NCBI GenBank assembly: GCA_023515795.1
Contig: JALGPX010000002.1
Span: forward strand, 174,449 to 194,448
Length of the DNA stretch: 20,000 bases
Source: Amoeboaphelidium occidentale
Lineage: Eukaryota
Reading direction: 5' to 3'
Shown: piece by piece, positions 386 through 20,000 of the stretch
How the letters are laid out: every line of letters starts with the position of its first letter
Numbering within the stretch: the first letter of the stretch is position 1
Position numbers and translations under genes: made by a program
The notes under the pieces: model-generated
What the model was told of the DNA's origin: nothing
Databases searched by the model: none
The model's input: the letters and a program-made list of their open reading frames with translations, nothing else

Positions 386-2340
386 TCATTTAGATTTACA
401 AGTAATATCTTTGCATAATTCAATCAATAAATTCCATAATTCTGCTTCTTTCAAGTAATATCCTGTCCAGCAGGAGAGAATTTCATTCAGTAGTCTGAAG
501 TGCATGATGCCTTTTGACGAGCTGCGTTTCAGAATGATATCTTTACGAACGTGCCTTGCTAAATATTCATCGCATTCTTTCAACGGTACAGCATGAACAT
601 CATTCTTGTAGAGTATGTTAATCCATCCTTCGTTACTGGATTCTGAAGACCATGAAGGCAGTGGAGTAGGATGAGAAGCACCAAACCAAGGCAAAGGATT
701 TGCAATGCTCAAGAAATATTTCAGCTTCAAACCAGAACCTTTCCCAAAGATCTCTGCAGCAGTGGGAATATTCAACTCGTCTTGTAACTTTCCAAGAGCA
801 AGTGCCGATACAAGTGCTCCTGTTGTGTATGCAATTATCATTACTATTGCGCTTGTATTCCGATATTCATTAGATAAGGAATTCAAAACCTTTTGGAATC
901 CATCATGTATCTTAGTTCGAACATAATGCTCCGCCCAATAAGATAATGCTATAGGAAATCTGCATAGAATTTGATGTCGACCATAGGAATAGATGGAACT
1001 TACAGGATCTAATCCTTTCGTGCGAATCTCATTATCCTTCGACATCAATAAATCATATCGAAGAAGGTGTAGATCAAAAGTAATGTTCTTTTTTGAAGCC
1101 TTCGCTAGCTGTTCCATACTACTACTCAAACCAATTTTTACTTGCTCGATTTCGGAATCGATTTGAGAAGCAGTAGACATTCCATGCACATACACAAAGA
1201 CAAAACGTTGTTCTTTTGCGGCACTATCTGAGATGATCGTTCTGGTATAAACTTTTTCAATCGAAACTGCTTCCTCATCTTTATCCCAAGGTGAAACAGG
1301 CGATCGAAGCATAGGGACTTTTTCATTGAAGTCCATGTTTTCCTTTATCTCAGAGGCCATAGTTTTGTACACATCATCATCGTAGAAATACATAAAATGA
1401 CTAAACGGTGTTATTCGCCCTATGAAAATCAGCAAGAACGTCACCATACTTTTGAATAGCCCAAACAGCACTTGAATAACCGAAAACACACTCACAGACT
1501 TCAGCTTCTTGGTATATTGCGTGATCTCGTTCATATCTGGCATGAATCCAAACTCAACATCTTTCACATGAGCAACTTCCTCACCTTGAACGCTAATACC
1601 ACTCGAGAGAATATCAGAAGTGTAATGAATATTAGTCCAAGGTATCTGAACTTTCCTATGAAATGGCCTAATAGGATGATGCCAATTGACAGCACAACCA
1701 AGGGTGATCAACAGCTTGAACTGTTGCAACAACAAACGCCCTTCCAAAGTGAAACCATCTTGACACTCTGATTGCAAATAATTAGTTAAAAATTCCACAC
1801 CCAGCGTAGCACCCATGCTAAAACCAACCAAAACAAAAGAAATATCATCATCATCGCTACTTTGAGAAGAGTCTTGCATCATTTCCTGTCCAAGTTCGTT
1901 CACAGTTTCAATAACATGATGAAACATATCCTGNNNNNNNNNNNNNNNNNNNNCAAAACAAAAGAAATATCATCATCATCGGTACTTTGAGAAGAGTCTT
2001 GCATCATTTCCTGTCCAAGTTCGTTCACAGTTTCAATAACATGATGAAACATATCCTGTCGAACGCTCTCCGAACCCCAAAACGAAAGGCCCATATTCAG
2101 AACCCTTAAAGGAAGCATTCTAAGGATTGTTTTCCAGTCTAGCCAACTGTACTTGAGTCTTTTACACATTTTTAACTGACGGTCCTCATGCAAGCGAGCA
2201 TAATTAACATACTTCACAACAACCTTCAGGTCTGAGCCTTCAAACTCTTTTCTTATTTGCTTCTCAAAGTGCTTATTAACAATATCAACCTGATCAGCAA
2301 AGCTTAGTCCGTGCAAGAACAAAACACCAATCTGTTTCAT
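386..2340 (-). CDS. Protein with two tandem alpha/beta-hydrolase-like domains; one gene split by an assembly gap
   Basis: ATG at 2340 (MKQIGVLFLHGL). ORFs 1900-2352 and 386-1927 join once the 105-bp duplicate around the N gap is collapsed. Domain 1: LHG, GFSMG, WTNIHYTSD, SHFMYF. Domain 2: VHG, AYTTG, NPLPWF, WINILYKND, WTGYY. Confidence 0.7.
1829..2058. repeat. 105-bp duplicate across a 20-N gap (1829-1933 and 1954-2058); contig-overlap artefact
   Basis: Copies are identical except C1857/G1982 and abut Ns at 1934-1953. Confidence 0.9.
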
Positions 2341-2385
2341 CTCGAAGAGCAAGAAAACATTCGAACTGACAGAGGCATTTTATTT

Positions 2386-2511
2386 AAGCGTACAAGACGC
2401 AGCAAAATATCGCGTATAAAGACGGAAGTACCTCATTGCGCTTTAAGCAAGCAGTGGACCCAGCATCTCTGTGGGGCCAAGACCTTCTGCTAAATCATTT
2501 GGAGCACCAAA
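2386..2511. repeat. Direct repeat copy 1 (126 bp; copy 2 at 4723-4848)
   Basis: AAGCGTACAAGACGC...GGAGCACCAAA; one mismatch (C2487/T4824). Similarity extends about 12 bp further left with an indel. Confidence 0.95.
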
Positions 2512-2712
2512 AATAATACCTCAATCCAGACCTCTAACTTGCCGATCAAGTAGAAATACATCAATATCCGCAAATCAAAAACCCATAGGACACTGGACGG
2601 GGTATATCAGCAAAAAGTTTGATTTGGATTCCGTGGAAATGAAACGAATCGTATTGCACATAAACGCCCAATCAAGTGGACTCTTGTGAAACGGTGCCTT
2701 TGATTTTATTCG

Positions 2713-4509
2713 ATGAATCAACGGCTACCGAAAGAAGGGTTATTGGAATTCTTGCGCAAATTGAAACCAGAACCATCTGATCTAATTGAAGAATTGAACG
2801 CTGATTATGAGTTTACCGTTGGTAAGTGGATAGAGCGCTCAGAAGAAGGCTGGTTGCGACGCTATCCAAACTACGGAGACGACATCTACAATCACATCAA
2901 GGCAAAAATAGGACGACAAGCAGGCTCCGTTCCACCTGATAGTATCGCTCTGGCTGCTGGTATACCACATAACGGATATCTCTTGAGAACTGCTGTTTCT
3001 GCATTAGATCCCGATACAAATGAAGGTGTCCCTGGGACATTCAATACACAAAGAAAGGAACTAGTTGATAGTATTTTACATCTTATGGAACGTAAAGGAT
3101 TGTTCTACATCAGGGCGCCTCCATTCTGCGGGAAAACGGGCCTTTGTCAATTGTTATGCATGCGACTACTCGAAGCCGAGCCTGGTGCCGCTGTTTTACA
3201 TATTAGATGTAATGAATTGGATGAAGGTGAAAGCTTTCGCGAATTTTTCAAAAGAAAGTACAAATGCGCGTGGGAGGATTTTGTGGAACAACCATTCAAA
3301 AAGTATTTGTTGTTGGATGAAGGGCAGTGCACATATGCTGATATCTGGCTGTGGAAAACGCTGTGCAAGAATCAGTTATCACGGATTGAAAAAGGCCTGC
3401 ACTTACTAGTAGCGTCCGCCTATGGTAGCTTTGACTCACTCAGGGCACGAAGGCGTTCCGGAACCCCAATACAAATTCCTGCCCAGAACATGTTTGAGTT
3501 AAAAGATCTTATTTTAAAGAGAACAGAGTTTAATGAGATGGTTTCTGGGAGTCGTTTTGAACAACATTCTGATATAATTTGGCAAGCTTGTGGTGCTCAT
3601 ATAGGTGTAGCTTCAAGAATCTTAATCACGCTTAATCACAACCGCCGGCCTAATGAACAATTTACTCCTAATTACATTGCTAACTGGTTATACTCTGATA
3701 GTATGATCCGCTCGTTGCCTGCACAAAGAGGTTTTATCGATATGCCAGCAGTCGAAACTATCAAAACGATTTATGAGATTTCTGATGCGGCATACTCGCG
3801 AATGCTTAATGTTTTACGAGAGGTAGCTGAAGGCAAAGACGTCCCTACTAAGGATCCTGATCGGTCGCCTGGAAGCAAAGAAGCCGTGACCATTTTGCTG
3901 AAGCATGGGTTTCTATTCGACACATCGGAAGGATTTCTGACATTCGCTTCCAATGCGCACTTGAATTTCTGGTTGGCTTCCTTTCGCACTGATAGCAGCA
4001 TTTGGTTCTTTGATTCTGGTGACATCGTATCATTTGTAGTCGAATCCGTTTCCCGTATGAGCAGGAAGCTATTATCTGACGTTGTTAAAGAAAATCATGG
4101 TCGTAGTCGTGAGAGACAAATCCATGCTGTTTACTATAATGCGGTAACTTCTTTAGTTCCCAAGAAGCACCGAGTGGTTACCGAATGGCAAACTACCGAC
4201 CGTGATGGTTATGTTGACATAGTGATAAGGATCAGCGACTCCGATTTATGGTTCCTGGAGTTGTTGGTTGATGGAGAGCGAGCCCAGCAGCACAATGACC
4301 GCTTTGAATCTTATGGTAATTATTCAAAAGATGTCCAGGCTTACGGTGGAAAGTATGCTCTGATTGATTTTCGCTTAACTACCCGTATTAAAAAAAGAAG
4401 GACGGATTTCGTTTATGTTACGTTTTCAGAGAATTACAAGAATGCGACAATACAGTATGGCACATCTGAATCTAACTCTTCCACCATTACAAGAGAATTG
4501 AATGAATAG
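2713..4509 (+). CDS. Crinkler/RHS-like (CR) protein: short helical header + P-loop NTPase + PD-(D/E)XK restriction-endonuclease-like domain, 598 aa, intronless
   Basis: Walker A APPFCGKT, Walker B LLLDEGQ, ASAYGS...GTP; C-terminal ERQIH...GYVDIVI...WFLELLVDG...H..RF...YALIDFR, typical of fungal CR-NTPase+REase proteins. Confidence 0.8.
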   Translation: MNQRLPKEGLLEFLRKLKPEPSDLIEELNADYEFTVGKWIERSEEGWLRRYPNYGDDIYNHIKAKIGRQAGSVPPDSIALAAGIPHNGYLLRTAVSALDPDTNEGVPGTFNTQRKELVDSILHLMERKGLFYIRAPPFCGKTGLCQLLCMRLLEAEPGAAVLHIRCNELDEGESFREFFKRKYKCAWEDFVEQPFKKYLLLDEGQCTYADIWLWKTLCKNQLSRIEKGLHLLVASAYGSFDSLRARRRSGTPIQIPAQNMFELKDLILKRTEFNEMVSGSRFEQHSDIIWQACGAHIGVASRILITLNHNRRPNEQFTPNYIANWLYSDSMIRSLPAQRGFIDMPAVETIKTIYEISDAAYSRMLNVLREVAEGKDVPTKDPDRSPGSKEAVTILLKHGFLFDTSEGFLTFASNAHLNFWLASFRTDSSIWFFDSGDIVSFVVESVSRMSRKLLSDVVKENHGRSRERQIHAVYYNAVTSLVPKKHRVVTEWQTTDRDGYVDIVIRISDSDLWFLELLVDGERAQQHNDRFESYGNYSKDVQAYGGKYALIDFRLTTRIKKRRTDFVYVTFSENYKNATIQYGTSESNSSTITRELNE

Positions 4510-4722
4510 TAATAAAGAAATATCCAAATGCCATAAACGAAAAGAAACTGACCGATCAAAGACTCTCGCAACACTTGCATGAGAGAACTACATAGAGGGC
4601 TACGGTAATAAGATCTTAAGCTCTATCTGACTACATTTTTTTGAAGTATCAGATGGTAAAGGTTGAATGGCAACTTGGGTGACCGGCGAATCAACGGAGA
4701 ACACCAACAAGGGCATTTATTG

Positions 4723-4848
4723 AAGCGTACAAGACGCAGCAAAATATCGCGTATAAAGACGGAAGTACCTCATTGCGCTTTAAGCAAGCAGTGGACCCAG
4801 CATCTCTGTGGGGCCAAGACCTTTTGCTAAATCATTTGGAGCACCAAA
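4723..4848. repeat. Direct repeat copy 2; the last codons, stop and 3' UTR of the 4780-5568 gene
   Basis: Matches 2386-2511; on the minus strand it encodes FGAPNDLAKGLGPTEMLGPLLA* plus 3' UTR. Confidence 0.95.
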
Positions 4849-5568
4849 CATTTCTTTCAAACTTTTCACACTGAAGTAACTCACGCTCTTGTCTTCTTTC
4901 CGAGGATCATTTGGTGTTTTAACAATATCAAATAATACACCATAACGATTAGAAGTAGAACTGTTGTACCAGTCAGCACGTATTGTGTCCTTCTTTATGA
5001 TCACCACATCCCCGCGATTGTAAGTAACTTTCTCAAGCTTCTTAGTGCTCTTGTTGAACACCACCAAAGTACTTTCTGATTCCAGACCACCGAATACTAC
5101 ATAACCTGCCCTTTTTACGCTGTCACTGTGAAGTCTTTCAGCAAGAGTGCCTGGTGCAGACTCTAGATATGTCAGGGTGTGCTCCCAACCTTCTTCTGCT
5201 GGATACAACTCTTTCATTACAGATACCAACTTATCTAACTTGGGGTAAAGACCCTTTCTATAAACGCTTTCTTCAGAAACATTATAGTAACTTCGGCCAT
5301 GTGGAGGTTGAACAACAATGAAATCTTCTTCATATGGAATTGTGTCTCTTAGATTTAACTACCTTTTGTATGTAGACTCGACCATAGTTCTTAATACCTT
5401 CTTAACCACTATGTAATCCTTGTCGTTCTGTTCAAGATCTTCTATCGCAGGTCTTACTATGTGCACCGCTGATCTCGCCTGGCGCTTCCTATCTCTATCG
5501 TACACTCTCAATGCCACAATTTGCTCTGCCGTTTTATTTCTGTAATTTTTTGATACTCTCTTTGACAT
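4780..5568 (-). CDS. DSBH / 2OG-Fe(II) oxygenase-like protein, interrupted by one in-frame TAG (intron or nonsense)
   Basis: ORFs 5359-5577 and 4780-5229 are the same frame, separated only by TAG at 5361-5359. Motifs ESAPG...LHSD and RGDVVIIKKDTIRA resemble the PhyH-like HxD and GD.hhh.GD.hHA motifs; the distal His is replaced by Arg. Confidence 0.5.
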
Positions 5569-5687: not shown

Positions 5688-6803
5688 TTATTTTTCTATT
5701 AGGGCTTGCAGAACGTCGTTGACGTGCTTGTGGGAGGAACTATCCCGAAATTGTTTTGAGATCGTAGGACTTAGTAGCGATAGTATATGGCAAGTATGAG
5801 TACTCTCGTTGCATAAGAATAGCTTCGACTCAACATTCTTGCTCTTCAATGCTTCATAAAAATTAATGCTTTGACTCGCAGGTACTGTTTGATCATTCAA
5901 ACCATGAACCAAATGAACTTTGCAAGAGAGATTATCCGAGATGTTATAAAGTGGCGATGCTTCAATAAAGTCTTCCTCGGTATTGCGCATTAACCTTCCC
6001 ATAGCACTAATCTCTTCAACACCACGCGAGGTTTCATACTCAAAATGCTGCGAAATATCATAAACACCACCGATTAAGAGTAAGCCTTTGACACGAAATT
6101 CAGAACCCTTACTCGAAGAGCTTAAGAAGCATTGAGCCGCTAAATGAGCTCCAGCAGAATGAGCAATAACATGGAACTTGTCGGAATCGCCATTATAACT
6201 GTTACAGTTGTGTAATGACCATTTCATAGACTTGAGAATGTCTTGCAGCATGTCTTTAAGCTCAGTCACTACAGGGAACAATCTGTACTCTGGAATTATC
6301 ACGGTGTAGCCTTGAGAGGCCAAGTGAAACCCAATGGAACGATATAGAGCTTTGGACCCGCTCATCCATGCGCCACCATACAAAAACATAATGACAGGAC
6401 TTTTAGTTGAACCTTCATTCCAGAACACATCCATCTCCGGAAACCCTTCTTGTTTTACGGTCTTGCTAAAAATCAGAAGGTTATGTGCTATTGAATCTTA
6501 CTGCTGCGCCACTTTAGAACAGTACTCATATTTGATATAATCATACAAAACTCTCCAGTAATCCATATCCACGTACATTGATAAGCTCTCGACCAGGGCC
6601 TTGTTAATTAGGAGCACCCTCTTGAATCCATAAGGTAACTTTAAAAGCACACCAGAATTCGTTTGAGCATACACCAGATACACAAGACTCGCATTGATAA
6701 ACATCATAATCATCACAGGAACACATAAAAATAAAGAAGATATAATGGAAAAGTGCAGCATAAAGGAAGCTGAAGTCGATACGAATTTCTTGACAAAAAC
6801 CAT
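5688..6803 (-). CDS. Isoprenylcysteine methylesterase-like (ICME / BD-FAE-type) alpha/beta hydrolase; exons 6803-6502 and 6465-5688
   Basis: A 36-nt GTAAGA...TTTTAG intron (6501-6466) joins the two ORFs in frame. YGGAW oxyanion motif, AHSAG nucleophile, HGLNDQTVP, distal His; hydrophobic N-terminus. Confidence 0.75.
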
Positions 6804-6912
6804 CCAATAGTGCCCGATGGACTCTTTTAAGAGGACAGAGGGTGTAAAGACATGGACTCGCGTTTTTTTCAGGGGTACGAATGGCGTGATTCTTTTGGTT
6901 CATTTGCTGATG

Positions 6913-7476
6913 GGCGTTCAACTTTTAGGTTTCGAATAGATTTCATATTTTCATATACAAAGCGTATCTGTTGCATCCTTAGGTAGATCTATTTGTTTCT
7001 TATACTTTCCATTCTTAACTATCTTCTTTCATCTTGCCGTTTCAAGTAGCGCGGCGTGAAGGGCGCAGAAGAACCTAGGCAAATTTACCAGAGCAGTTGA
7101 TTTTTTACATTTAAAAGTGACTGCTGATATCAAATCGTCCGTGTTCTGTAAACAGTGATCATCTATCTCCGGTTTTCGCTTTCTACNTGATTTTGTGATT
7201 GGCGTTCAACTTTTAGGTTTCGAATAGATTTCATATTTTCATATACAAAGTGTATCTGTTGCATCCTTAGGTAGATCTATTTGTTTCTTATACTTTCCAT
7301 TCTTAACTATCTTCTTTCATCTTGCCGTTTCAAGTAGCGCGGCGTGAAGGACGCAGAAGAAAACAAAGCAAAACTTATCAGCACTGCTGATTTTTTACAT
7401 TTAAAAGTGACTGCTGATATCAAATCGTCCGTGTTCTGTAAACAGTGATCATCTATCTCCGGTTTTCGCTTTCTAC
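6913..7476. repeat. About 275-bp near-duplicate across a single N (6913-7186 and 7201-7476); probably two haplotypes
   Basis: Near-identical copies with one divergent patch (about 7062-7097 vs 7350-7387) and N at 7187. Confidence 0.85.
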
Positions 7477-9705: not shown

Positions 9706-10907
9706 ATGAAATAAATGGGGGATTTTCACTTAAAATTTTTTTGTGATATGCAAACTTTTTGCAAAATCGAGCTCACGAAGTTCGAGTTAGCTGGTCAGCG
9801 AGTCCGAGTTAGCTCCTCACGCGAGAAAACGTAATAAAAACACTCGGAAAAGTCCTCTTACCTTCTTTTATTGTTTCTATCGGGCTAACGGTCGATTAAA
9901 ATTATGATATTGCACAATGAACAGCCGTTCAAAGTCACGATTTCGCTGATACTACAGCCCTGAGACGTAACTGGTGACTTGGAACTTCAGATATGCTCCG
10001 ATTTATCAGGCTGAGCTGTTTCAAGGTCATATTGGAGAGATCGAATGTTCTGTGTGGAGTACACGCTATTGGAACCCGACTATAATTTGAAACTCTTTGT
10101 GAAGCCTTGTTTCAGTGAATGTTTCAGGCAAGGACATGCAAGGATGAGAGTGTAATTGGTGTAAAGATGAGTTCTGGTGCCTTTTCATACTCTTTATTGA
10201 TAGGTTGTTTGAATGCGTCTCCGATTTACTGCGTAGAATAGGAAATGGATCAGATCTCCCTTAGGCCAATTTCTACAGATTTTGTCCTAAGAGAAATCTT
10301 TCGATTGGATATATAGAGATTGGAAATTAATGAAACCACTACAGCACGCCCACTACAGGAGTAGCAGGCATTAATGCAAGATGATTTCGACGCACTTTGT
10401 TCAGGGTATGCATGACATTTAAGCTTGAAACTCTTTATTGAATAGATTCTCATTGCATTGCATTCCCCAAAGTACTGTCATTAGCCAGTAAATCAATTGA
10501 AACTTAGTCTTTCGTATTCAATGTAGTCAATTGCACTTCTCGAGTCTCATTTAACCCGCTCTCTAACTTCACGCTCTCCGTCTGACAGATGAAACCAAAT
10601 ACCACCGGATCTTGGTGAAGACGAAATGCGACAAGCGAATACGTTCCGATTCGTCCATTTGGATTAAGTTATAGACATTGACAGACTTGGCACGAAGAAT
10701 GTCTACATTTTCTGTTGGACTCTTTCAGTGATCAGTTTAGCGATTAGGTCAAATATCACACCTCAACACCACTTTAAATTGAATCAACAAGGCTAGTGTA
10801 ACCGGCTTTGAAACGCAAATAAATATCATATTCGTACGTTTCTATCATGCGTCTTTCCTGCTATAGCTTGTTTGGGTGATCTTCGGTTTCAGGCTTGTTT
10901 TGTAACA

Positions 10908-13060
10908 ATGCCTAAAAGGAAGAAAAAGAAAGAGCCGGAAATGGCTTTTAGTACCGTAATCCCTTCTCTAGAAAGTGCCACGGTTGTTTCAATTGATGCT
11001 GCTGATGTTGCTCGTGTGAATGATGAAAGTCCCGAGGAGACCTCTACAAAACGTTGCAAGTCATGCGGTGGGACGGACCATCAAAGAGTTTCGTCATAGA
11101 AAAGCGCCAATTACAAACCTCCAGTTAACATGAGAAGCGTAGATGCGTCCTATGAGTATGCGACGTCTACAATCAAGTTTGGCCTGTTAAAGAATGTCAA
11201 GTCTCAAGATTTTCAAATGAAACTGAAACGTTATGTTGAAAGGATGAACTTAATTAGGATTCATGCATCAAACCTATTTAACTTGTACTTGATAGATATG
11301 TTGGCTGCTGGAAAAAGTATTGGGCTTGTTACAACAGGAAAAGATGGAACCCTGTGCAATTTTTTTGTTGCGGCTACTTGACGCACAAAAGACGTGCATT
11401 CAAATAGTCTGGAGGGTGACTTGGAAAGAATAGTTAGCGATTATGCTTCAATGCTGAAACAGGTTGGTTTTGAATTGCCCAATGGAGACGGGTTGTCACA
11501 ATCAATGGTGCATCTGGCTGGAGAATATGAAACAAGATGCAAAACTTTCGTTTCAACTACTTTGCTCGGCAGAATAGCACGCTGGTTGAAGTTTTTGTTA
11601 GAAACGGCATTGCCAGAGGTGTTCGTGAGCATGGCGCGCAGTAAAAGCGCTGCTGGTTATTTGATAGCTATGTTCATATATGAAATGTCTGATGATCCTA
11701 AAAAAACAAGAACCAACGTTGGCCAAGAAAGTGGTTGAATATTGCAAGAATTACAGTTCGATTGGGTTAATGGGTACAGCATTGGAGCAAGTGTATTGCG
11801 TTTTGAAGCAAAAAAACAGCGGTCATAAGGCTGAGTCTAGAAAAGTTAAAGATCAAGACGAATTGGCACCATTACTTGACGCTACTCTACAAAATTTTGG
11901 ACTTCTTTAGAAACCATCAAAATGAAGATGCTGCTTTCCGCGTTGAAACTCAGCAAAGAGGTAGGCGGCTTAGAACATTTACATTGGCGCCCATCTATCA
12001 AAACCGTAACGGATACGTCAACATTGACACTTCTTGCCTATTTGAAGTGTAACAATTCGAAAAAGAAGACCGACGCGACTGGGGTTTTCCTTTTGATAAG
12101 GACTTGATAGAAAAAGGAAAAACAACACGACAGTACTTTATGGAAACAGCAGAAGCTCGCTGGGGAGAAACAGTTGAGATGAAGCCTTGGTTACCCAAAT
12201 GAATGACATTTGGGTATTCGATGGTAACTGATGGCGTTTCGGTTGAATTTCATGTCATGAAAAAAATCCATGATGGGGACAAAGGTCCCGATGATTTTGG
12301 TTTGAATATGGTGGACGACAAGAAATTTTATGTTCCGGTTGATTTAAAAGATACTGTTGTCATTGGCTTAGACCCTGGGAGGAAAGATTTGTTTGATGCG
12401 TATGATGAAAATGGGTCTTTTGGTTGTTCTGGGGGAGAATGGAGACGATTGTCTGGTATTGAATTCTCTGCGAAGAACGAAAGTTTAGGTTGAGTAAACG
12501 GACTGATATCGGTAAAATCAATGCCGATATGCCTTCTGCAAAGGTAGCCACAGTCCTTGAGTTCAAACAATATTTGAGTTACTTTGCAAAAAATTTGAAT
12601 ACTTCAGTGTCTTTTTACGGATCTCACCAGTGGCGTCTTTCTAAGAAGAACGTGTGACATTCATAAACAATGGGCTTATGATCATTTGATCAAGCGTATC
12701 AAAAGAAGGGGAAAGAAAGTCTTTGTTGCTTTTGGTGGTGGCAAGTTTTCTAGTTGTTCACGTGGTCACGCTCCAATTCCGAAGGTTGGCTTTTACAAAG
12801 CGTTGAAACAAAGAAAGATTCCGTGTAGATACGTTTGGGAATACAATACCAGCAAGATTTGCGCTAAATGTTTCACTGTTCTACCAAAAGGAAGGAAATG
12901 GCGTCTGAAGATTTGCTCGAAGATTACTTGTGGCAGATACTGGAACAGAGACGTGAACGCTGCAAAAGACATGAAGTTCGTATTTACTTTCATGAACAAG
13001 AACAACGGAGAAAGACCAGAACAATTCAAACCAAAACCTACAGAAGCAGGAACAAAATAA
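10908..13060 (+). pseudogene. Fanzor1 (eukaryotic TnpB-family RNA-guided RuvC nuclease), inactivated
   Basis: Stitched frames give PKRKKKK (NLS-like), CKSCGGTDH (Zn knuckle), STIKFGL, WHHYLTLLYKIL, FTLAP...YVNIDT, TDGVSV, RuvC-I IGLDPGRKDL (D 12371), AFGGGKF, RuvC-II WEYNTSKICAKC (E 12839), RuvC-III WNRDVNAA (D 12950). In-frame stops at 11097, 11379, 12050, 12200; frameshifts near 11700, 11760-11860, 12478, 12650. Confidence 0.92.
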
Positions 13061-13264
13061 CAACAACAAAACCGAGGTAACAGAGGGACGCAAGTCCGCT
13101 CAAGACCACAATAGGGACCATGTTACGAACGTTACCTCTGATGTTGATGTAGTTACGGTTGCGTGACTACATTGACTGTTCGTATGTTGAGTCAATTAAA
13201 AGTGAAACGGGAGTCAGATTTACGAGTCTCTTTTGCGTTCTTTCTGATTGAAATCAACAATAAT
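13061..13264 (+). ncRNA. Candidate Fanzor omegaRNA scaffold / element right end
   Basis: Lies directly 3' of the Fanzor stop. Hand-derived stems: 13074-13081/13131-13138; 13147-13157/13162-13172; TTGACT/AGTCAA; 13081-13094/13232-13246; terminal TGAT-TGAA-ATCA. Confidence 0.65.
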
Positions 13265-13433: not shown

Positions 13434-13570
13434 AACGTTACCTCTGATGTTGATGTAGTTACGGTTGCGTGACTACGTTGACTGTTCGTATGTTGAGTCA
13501 ATTAAAAGTGAAACGGGAGTCAGATTTACGAGTCTCTTTTGCGTTCTTTTTGATTGAAATCAACAATAAT
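13434..13570 (+). repeat. Second copy of the Fanzor right end / omegaRNA 3' part (copy 1 at 13128-13264)
   Basis: 137 bp with 2 substitutions (A13171/G13477, C13244/T13550). Starts right after the N and has a different 3' flank. Confidence 0.95.
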
Positions 13571-18215: not shown

Positions 18216-18575
18216 ATCTTGAAATCTAATTGTTTTTGAAGCAACTTGTTTAAACTCTAAAACGTCGTTGCATACATCTCTATTAGATCATTTGGTTGAC
18301 TCTTCAGTTCTGTTTCGAAGTATTCGCTCTCCTTTGAACCCATTTGCTGCAAAGATCGCAAATCGCGGAGAATTTTAAGAGAATAGAATATCATTCTGCG
18401 AAGTAACCAGAAGCTTAATCGTAGAATACAAATAGTTTTGCTCCCCGTGAGATATTCTACACTTCATTCCCAAGCTTTCGGTTGCGCTGTCGCCGATCAG
18501 AGAATGTTTTCGCTTTTTTACGAAAATTGTCATTTAACTCACTCGTCTACTACTACTACAAAATATAATAATTCA

Positions 18576-20000
18576 ATGGGCATTAAAGGGTTTAGTGCTT
18601 TTGCCAAGAAACATCAGCTGTTATCTGAGACCATCAATCTCCAAGAGTTCAATGAATTATATAAGAATCACAGGATCTTTGTGGATCTCTATGGCAGTTT
18701 CTATGATCTTATTCGTTATTATGTATTGGATGACAAGTATGAGGCTCTAGTCACTATTTTCAGCAAAATGTCTAGTGATCTAGACGTAACGTTCGTTATC
18801 GATGGCAGCCGGTCCGCTGAGAAGCATAAAACCCATGCTGCAAGAGATCAGCAACGCTTTCTTAAACTGCACTCATTTCAGGACATTATTCATTCTTTTG
18901 ATCCACAGAATAATGTTTCCAAGTCAAAGTGGCGCTCAATGGAAAAGTTCAGATATTCTTGCTTTAGAATTACAGAGCATCACACGAAACAACTATTTCG
19001 CGCACTTGAATCGGCTAATTTGCCAGTAATTCTCGCAAAGTTTGAAGCGGATGTTGAGATCGGGCGTCTAGTTGCGAAATTAAAATCGAATGAGTTATCA
19101 AATACAATAGTTGTTTCTTCGGATTCCGATCTGGTATTTTATGGATGCTCTGTTGTTGCAAAGCCTTTTTTCATGAACAAGTTTGATTGGAAATCTTTGC
19201 GTTTTACTCTCTTTCGAAAAACAATTGCACTTAAAAAGATTGGAATAACCGAAGAGTGTTGGAACGCTTTGGCAGTTGTTGCGGGGAACGATTACGTTTC
19301 CAATTTGAGGGGATTCGGCATTGCGAGATGTTTGAAGGAATTTCAAAAAATTAATGAAAATGGCGCTTGCACTGCTGAAGAAATGGTGGAAACATTTGAG
19401 CAATCGCACGATAAAAAAAGGTCATTTTCAGATTGCCAGTGCAGTGTTTTTGAATTATCAAGAGACAAGTTGTGCGGTCTGTGTTGAAAGTCTTCAAGAG
19501 CAAATGTTTAAAGATTGCTGTAGTCAACTTCAGCTTTTAAAAGAAAAGTACAGAGCTGCCCGCGCCGCAAAGCGTCAAACCACTCAAGGAAGGTCTTTGC
19601 AAGAGCTGAAACATTTAAAATTTCCTTCTCGAAAGAATGCGTTTAGCCCCGTGGTTCATACTCAACTCGGGCGTTATAAAGTGAAAAAGATCGCAAAAAT
19701 TAAATTAACACAATCTGATGTGACTTCGGCTGAAACAATTGCTGGCCCTGTTTCTGTACAATCTTCAACAAGAAAGAAATCTACCAGGAGACAAGGGACG
19801 AAAAAGAAGAAGAAAGCTAGATACTTGAAGTCAGCAAAGCAAACTAGGACCAAGCCTTCTTTAAACCCACATGGTAAACACAAATTGGCTCAAACTACTG
19901 TAGACATGTGCACTCTTAAAAAACAATATCAGATTAAATCATGGCAGCTGGGAACTTTGCGAAGCCAAATCAAGAAGTCTTCCTTGGATACTGAAATTCA
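18576..20000 (+). CDS. PIN (XPG/FEN1-like) nuclease domain protein with long basic extension; frameshift at A7 19413-19419; 3'-truncated by window; candidate PIN-Fanzor fusion
   Basis: MGIKGF, IFVDLYGSFY, FVIDG...EKHKTH..R, FEADVEIG, VSSDSDL, GNDYVSNLRGFG (H3TH). Removing one A gives a frame open to 20000 (KGHFQIASAVFLNYQET...TKKKKKAR...IKSWQLGTLRSQIKKS). Confidence 0.75.

Follow-up and report, generated by a model that had tools for sequence, protein, structure and literature searches.

A CR-Type NTPase-Nuclease Gene Between 133-bp Direct Repeats of a Host Gene End: A Strain-Variable, Likely Recent Insertion in Amoeboaphelidium occidentale

How does an intact nuclease-type gene come to lie between two copies of the 3' end of its neighbour? 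This question is raised by a stretch of 20,000 nucleotides of Amoeboaphelidium occidentale (contig JALGPX010000002.1, positions 174,449 to 194,448; here called the window, to which all coordinates refer), in which a CR-type (Crinkler-RHS) gene for a protein with a nucleoside triphosphatase (NTPase) and a predicted restriction-endonuclease (REase) domain, P0001, is flanked by a direct repeat of 133 bp. The window was compared with contigs from seven of twelve listed runs (X1–X6 and X9; X7, X8, X10, X11, and X12 were left out). Our analysis revealed that the insertion with its flanking duplication is real, a single case, and likely recent, while its origin is best, though tentatively, explained by one event of host DNA repair.

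Layout of the Insertion Site

The site consists of the following features:

2379–2511: left repeat copy, a displaced copy of the host gene 3' end, extendable to 2374
2512–4715: insert of 2204 bp, missing where contigs of X2, X3, X4, and X6 bridge the site
2512–2712, plus strand: 5' flank of the CR gene within the insert, 201 bp, covered by one X1 record only
2713–4509, plus strand: CR-type gene, intact and intronless, 598 aa (P0001)
4510–4715, plus strand: 3' flank of the CR gene within the insert, 206 bp
4716–4848: right repeat copy, joined to the host gene
4780–5568, minus strand: orphan gene of 262 codons that received the insertion (target or host gene), with three homologues

The repeat copies are mismatched at 2385/4722 and 2487/4824 and can be stretched to 138 and 137 bp (from 2374 and 4712) when GGCA is counted along with a slip of one base in a run of T. 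They contain the last 23 codons, the stop codon, and the 3' untranslated region of the target gene, whose AATAAA sits at the very end of the repeat. The initial annotation had described a 126-bp core with a single mismatch around a single-gene cassette of about 2.2 kb, free of nearby Ns, and all of this was found again: the core (2386–2511 and 4723–4848) has its one mismatch at 2487/4824, the insert holds one open reading frame (ORF), and no N occurs at the insert site. The AATAAA of the CR gene lies at 4511, about 200 bp ahead of the insert end, which reads GGCA and matches the host DNA immediately outside the left repeat, with a microhomology of 4–5 bases (GGCA/T) at the right junction.

A foreign origin by composition was rejected, as the insert (GC content of 0.42) has a GC3 of 0.40 versus 0.35–0.42 in neighbouring genes. 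Within the repeat, a palindrome with a 5-bp stem (2498–2511 and 4835–4848) stops exactly at the boundary, which was noticed post hoc and is expected at 0.5% of positions by chance. Folding of the repeat as single-stranded DNA (z of −3.1 on one strand) was dismissed as evidence, with 4 others of 99 segments behaving alike and a z of −0.8 on the reverse strand.

Verification with Contigs of Run X1

Since three further long repeats of the window adjoin Ns (1829/1954, 6902/7190, and 13128/13434), an assembly artefact was considered first. Run X1 shares 96% of sampled words with the window and is possibly its own source, so that its contigs are not independent support. Four of them make up the site, namely the left flank (depth of 107x), an unbranched 133-nt repeat (192x), the insert (99x), and the right flank (106x), the depth of the repeat being about twice that of the insert. 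Both junctions lie inside the insert contig (2482–4745), while no listed X1 piece covers the whole stretch end to end. As a control, the N-adjacent repeat 1829/1954 collapsed in X1 and X6 (a joint skipping 125 bases), whereas the 133-bp repeat stays uncollapsed in X1, which argues for two real copies. X1 and the window differ at 2366, 2385, 3660, and 5556 and, based on contig overlaps, at 4824; given the X1 states at these positions, both of its repeat copies are identical, compared to copies 2/133 apart in the window.

An artefact might be suggested by the artefactual duplications elsewhere in this assembly, with 1829/1954 as the collapsing example, by the possible identity of X1 with the source run, and by the lack of a spanning X1 piece. 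However, the N-free site, the two junctions within one contig, and a repeat at 192x versus 99–107x around it leave hardly any room for this reading. Though integration and a circle beside an empty chromosome look alike in the contig graph alone, the 1:1 depth favours integration. Thus, the observation of a CR-type gene between long direct repeats, as made initially, was confirmed by repeat comparison as well as by X1 contigs and depths.

Empty Site in Related Runs

In four of the six runs other than X1, the site is bridged by a contig (X2, X3 with two alleles, X4, and X6; studies P2–P5), and all five bridging contigs are empty and none is filled, so that filled and empty alleles exist; in X5 and X9, no contig bridges the site. 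The empty-site joint leads from 2484 to 4825, a gap of 2340 bases made up of 2337 and an indel of 3 bp, and leaves the clean single repeat copy that had been predicted for an empty site. The second allele of X3, which is more diverged, is also empty, with 119 letters versus 121 expected. Flanks in the bridging runs are 96–98% identical to the window, those of X2 differing at 9/525 and 73/1981 bases (1.7–3.7%). Repeat positions 2408, 2429, and 2431 are different in the X2-type allele, which also has the 3-bp indel, while both copies of the window are in the window state. Judging from these positions, the duplication was probably made from the allele of the window lineage itself, a foreign 3' end not being its source, and probably arose after the split from the X2-type lineage, a pattern that gene conversion could mimic.

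The insert was without cover in X2, X3, and X4 (at least 85%) and in X5 and X9 (at least 80%), where contigs prove presence but not absence from those genomes. In X6, a 151-nt contig of depth 2 is identical to insert positions 3868–4018 and occurs beside the empty site; it may come from a filled strain present in minor amounts or from a second location of the insert.

An ancestral insert that was lost in the relatives by recombination between the repeats would leave precisely the observed empty form. However, a difference of 2–4% between the lineages contrasts with near-identical copies, and the more diverged X3 allele is empty as well, so that repeated loss together with homogenisation would be required; we regard this history as very improbable. 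Altogether, we infer a gain and not a loss, and a recent one, and the empty site in four of the six other runs supports the initial interpretation as a recent insertion with an unusually long target-site duplication (TSD).

The CR-Type Protein P0001

P0001 comprises a helical header (residues c. 7–70), a disordered linker (67–112), NTPase and helical domains with Walker A near 135–142 and Walker B near 199–205, and a REase fold (c. 430–598). It had no match in Pfam, while a HMMER search with E ≤ 0.001 resulted in 322 representatives, of which the closest is 41% identical; named relatives come from chytrids, Phytophthora (annotated as Crinkler), Amoeboaphelidium, and an amoebozoan. With the Phytophthora Crinkler protein P0171, it shares 36% identity over 492 aa in the C-terminal part. 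The full-length model (pLDDT 79) displays the helical header, the disordered linker, and the NTPase, for which Foldseek found the archaeal AAA+ structures 2fna and 2qen as best matches, followed by NLR, RFC, and ORC structures (E from 7e-7), and P0001 agrees with a STAND/CDC6-ORC1-type P-loop NTPase. A sequence search against PDB resulted in weak P-loop matches and in nothing for the C-terminal domain. In the VIA comparison of this domain (model pLDDT 93), the top rows were nearly all of the REase fold, with OkrAI as best match (middling Z of 7.6, rmsd of 4.0, 126 aligned) ahead of BglII, BstYI, and BamHI; Foldseek matches were weak (E ≥ 0.005), and Atlas assigned PDDEXK_3 at 0.93.

Among 30 homologues, 102 columns are conserved, and P0001 deviates at 14 of them. 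Residues G140, K141, and T142 as well as D202 and E203, invariant or nearly so in these homologues, are kept, and so are E467, D502, E516, H527, R530, and D552 in the REase fold. Positions 471–473 read H-A-V where homologues usually have Q-M-E, and the canonical Lys is not present in the REase domain. The models thus predict a C-terminal restriction-endonuclease fold with putative acidic active-site residues.

The header appears to be modular: residues 1–75 are 43% identical (76 aa) to P0142 of Amoeboaphelidium protococcarum, which has a different C-terminus and no significant similarity beyond, so that P0001 shares its header with a protein of another C-terminus. The header also matches Amoeboaphelidium P0035. 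The ubiquitin-like LxLFLAK header (PF20147), carried by 3 of 31 aligned homologues, is not found in P0001. Judging from its sequence, P0001 is a CR-type protein and not a canonical PF20147 Crinkler, and the putative enzyme appears to be intact. The Crinkler similarity and the structure matches of both domains support the NTPase-REase identity proposed before. In a tree of 42 rows selected from the homology-search matches, P0001 is placed on a long branch with P0002, apart from the aphelid P0035; the tree names no donor, and the viral contigs and prokaryote genomes searched contained no related locus.

Insert Ends, Copies, and Homologous Loci

Is the insert a mobile element? Its ends revealed no terminal inverted repeat (TIR; best score of 16 versus a shuffled mean of 16.2), no terminal direct repeat, no end hairpin (end-fold z of −0.15 to −0.79), no tandem repeat, and no poly(A) tract on either side. 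The NTPase-REase gene is its sole ORF, with no transposase, and no reverse transcriptase (RT) was found in the window. In this respect, end scoring and ORF content bear out the first description, which had noted the lack of TIR, transposase, and poly(A) tail. With neither a TIR nor a DDE transposase ORF and with a duplication of 133 bp, the insert does not qualify as a TIR DNA transposon; of the marks of a non-LTR retrotransposon or retrocopy, it has the long TSD (133 bp) but neither RT nor a 3' poly(A) or other tail. Helitrons and tyrosine-recombinase elements are recognised by TC/CTRR ends together with a 3' hairpin and the lack of a TSD, or by a recombinase ORF. Such an element was rejected for the insert, which has the ends AAT.../...GGCA and is without end hairpins or recombinase ORF.

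At an identity of at least 80%, only one X1 record covers the insert, and no donor copy was seen in X1. None of six homologous metagenome loci displays a host duplication, only two of the six comprising the whole gene and DNA on both sides. In L003, the CR homologue P0013 (with an upstream exon) lies between 55-nt inverted repeats (2–56 and 2103–2156, c. 85% complementary; score of 71 versus 32 as the best of 1000 shuffles). The start of the right repeat coincides with the stop codon, and the left repeat reaches the contig edge, so that the outer ends are unseen; L003 is a possible TIR-type CR element, or possibly a pair of dispersed repeats. L001 carries a head-to-tail tandem array of CR genes (406–789 and 2474–2871, period of c. 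2080 bp), and its 202-nt repeat was rejected as a host duplication because it is a tandem copy of the CR gene's own 5' part.

Thus, the further proposal of the initial annotation, that the gene may itself be mobile, gains no support from the one X1 record, the nearest proteins at ≤41% identity, and the zero of six loci with host duplication (two of six informative). In such a scenario, the REase of P0001 would place nicks about 133 bp apart on opposite strands, with the NTPase setting the spacing or loading on DNA, and an excised or extrachromosomal gene would be joined in by cut-and-paste or after arrival from another strain, in both of which no donor would be expected. The gene-sized unit with its symmetrical 200-bp margins is in line with this, and so are the kept putative catalytic residues and Walker motifs, the REase fold with OkrAI as best match, the clean single repeat copy of the empty site, the inverted repeats around the L003 homologue, the post hoc palindrome at the 2511/4848 boundary, and the reported ties of the CR family to prokaryotic transposons and the Medea1 mobile element (PMC5289972, PMC11342252). 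On the other hand, it is a single event with one X1 record, conserved ends could not be demonstrated, the homologous loci give no parallel, and P0001 has no recognisable strand-transfer domain and retains a shuffled effector-type header. Such self-mobility is therefore conceivable but, in our view, unlikely.

Transposition of the gene in trans is less likely still. A non-LTR retrotransposon producing long TSDs could have copied a read-through transcript of a CR gene into the site, and long TSDs are known from the long interspersed elements R9 (126 bp) and Dualen (median of 900 bp), as described in PMC9977147; the intronless CR ORF fits as well. However, neither insert end has poly(A), the insert continues for about 200 bp beyond the AATAAA at 4511, long neighbouring genes are intronless too, no parent gene was seen in X1, and the window is without RT, which makes retroposition improbable.

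Target Gene

In the window and in X1, codon 70 of the target gene is a premature stop, while the frame is open in relatives, e.g., in P0181, which is 92% identical to its product. As an orphan with a stop in this lineage only, it probably represents a damage-tolerant site. In comparison with the X2 type, 11 of the 19 differences listed alter its protein, versus 3 of 10 in the adjoining esterase, again among those listed. Another locus in X2–X5, which may be a paralogue, matches the start of the target gene only at 5534–5568 (35 nt).

This target also bears on homing or circle integration, in which an element with a copy of the host 3' end enters by homologous recombination and leaves the old 3' end on its far side. 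A layout of this kind, with a duplicated host 3' end, is reported for the WHO10 insertions in Torulaspora globosa (PMC7282813). In our locus, the end of the repeat at the host AATAAA, the 3-bp indel polymorphism inside it, and the X1 contig graph, which fits a circle too, are compatible with such an entry. However, the target is a broken orphan and not an essential gene, both repeat copies belong to the window lineage and show no difference in X1, and neither is a foreign 3' end. The five bridging contigs contain neither a cluster nor any other insert, no LAGLIDADG domain occurs among the Pfam matches, the insert depth equals the flank depth, and a circle carrying a host segment would require an earlier capture step. 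We judge this route to be a little less probable even than retroposition.

Repair Capture as the Favoured Explanation

The explanation we prefer, without holding it to be established, is a strain-variable insertion that arose a single time, when the host repaired a staggered break in its DNA. A host break with opposite-strand nicks staggered by about 133 bases would have been filled in by repair, or about 133 bases would have been re-copied after a template switch returning upstream, and a gene-sized DNA fragment with the CR gene would have been end-joined between the two duplicated ends. Any filled-in, end-joined staggered break or upstream template switch would result in a direct repeat around an insert, and the formation of direct duplications by fill-in of staggered breaks is described as established (PMC8355091). 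Based on the header common to an Amoeboaphelidium protein and on a GC3 like that of the neighbours, the fragment may have come from the aphelid gene pool. A single event would fit the one X1 record, the nearest proteins at no more than 41% identity, and the lack of element ends, while the GGCA/T microhomology at the right junction fits the suggested repair route. A capture is also favoured by the dispensable-looking target, an orphan with a premature stop.

Several points weigh against a one-time capture. A random fragment would rarely consist of one whole gene plus about 200 bp on each side, and it would rarely contain a transposon-linked nuclease gene, an argument weakened by the fact that the case was chosen for such features. 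Repair by copying needs a donor, and none was seen in X1, unless it was lost or came from another strain. Furthermore, the L003 homologue between 55-nt inverted repeats indicates that the family occurs in mobile-looking contexts, and in X6, where the site is empty, the 151-nt piece of depth 2 matches the insert without any difference.

Other Features of the Window

The downstream neighbour of the insertion is the following gene:

386–2352, minus strand: alpha/beta-hydrolase-like gene with weak DUF676, split only by an artefactual 125-bp duplication around 20 Ns

The duplication at 1829–1953 is such an N-adjacent artefact, and the copies of the N-adjacent duplication at 6902–7476 are 91–97% identical. 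The window displays a compact eukaryotic genome with few introns; its genes include rpS3, a CDK, and an SPX-ankyrin-GDPD gene, and the long neighbouring genes are intronless like the CR gene. A 36-nt minus-strand intron (6466–6501) is skipped in contigs of X4, X5, and X9, which suggests that these are RNA-derived. A short high-copy interspersed repeat was identified at 6806–6870, and many contigs of X1–X4 match the window only there (summed X1 depth of c. 1800). At about 10900–13264, a degenerate, stop-broken Fanzor/TnpB-like element was found (PF07282 at 12686–13060), the right end of which repeats at 13434–13570 after one N. The 5' end of a URO-D gene lies in between, and two loci have likely been joined here by scaffolding. 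At 18438–20000 (plus strand), an ORF for an XPG-like nuclease (PF00867) precedes a lysine-rich ORF that continues beyond the window edge; they are possibly part of another mobile element.

Comparison with Known Systems

CR NTPase-REase genes have been proposed to descend from transposons and perhaps to be still moving (PMC5289972, PMC11342252). Like the CR proteins described there, P0001 combines a header, a STAND/CDC6-like NTPase, a helical domain, and a REase, with headers shuffled among C-termini; unlike them, it has a helical, aphelid-type header instead of the ubiquitin-like PF20147, and its locus is polymorphic, occurring either filled, with a duplication of 133 bp, or empty. Our literature search of titles and abstract beginnings revealed no CR gene with both a long TSD and an empty site, nor one whose ends were defined and whose empty site was described, though the founding CR study may describe repeats, so that the novelty of this combination is provisional. 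It is doubtful, though worth considering, that aphelid CR NTPase-REase genes are still autonomous DNA elements, i.e., 2.2-kb units without terminal repeats, transposase, or RT that are moved by their own nuclease. If true, nicking about 133 bp apart would restore the 3' end of the gene behind which the element landed, and these genes would form a previously unknown class of mobile element in eukaryotes as well as a living link between transposons and Crinkler effectors. The locus offers base-exact junctions, a protein that is intact, and natural alleles without the insert from four studies, which makes CR mobility directly testable. If it is a single event, the locus still illustrates one way in which effector-type genes come to be present in some strains of a probable algal parasite and absent from others.

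In WHO10 of T. globosa, an endonuclease gene lies in a 2–7-kb insert downstream of a host gene whose 3' end is duplicated, the integration route being described as unexplained (PMC7282813; the duplication of the 3' end is also known from a 2026 preprint). Our locus shares the duplicated host 3' end beside an endonuclease-type gene but has a REase fold instead of LAGLIDADG/zinc-finger domains and no replacement by a diverged, resistant 3' end. It also differs in its one copy, near-identical native repeats, and broken-orphan target, and fossil fragments of previous targets were not seen. The endonuclease of R9 is of the REase type. R9 and Dualen resemble our case in a TSD of more than 100 bp, which is explained there by widely spaced nicks (PMC9977147), but the insert possesses a single NTPase-REase ORF and neither RT nor poly(A). 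CR-like genes acting as selfish or mobile loci are described for AACRNL (PMC12957317) and Medea1 (PMC11342252); AACRNL is reported to hitch-hike inside hAT or mariner TIRs (PMC12957317), while our insert is without TIR or transposase. Finally, compared with repair-made tandem duplications with captured DNA (PMC8355091), our case differs in that a complete nuclease gene, the donor of which is unseen, would have been captured, whereas staggered-break fill-in, as proposed here, and short junction microhomology are features in common.

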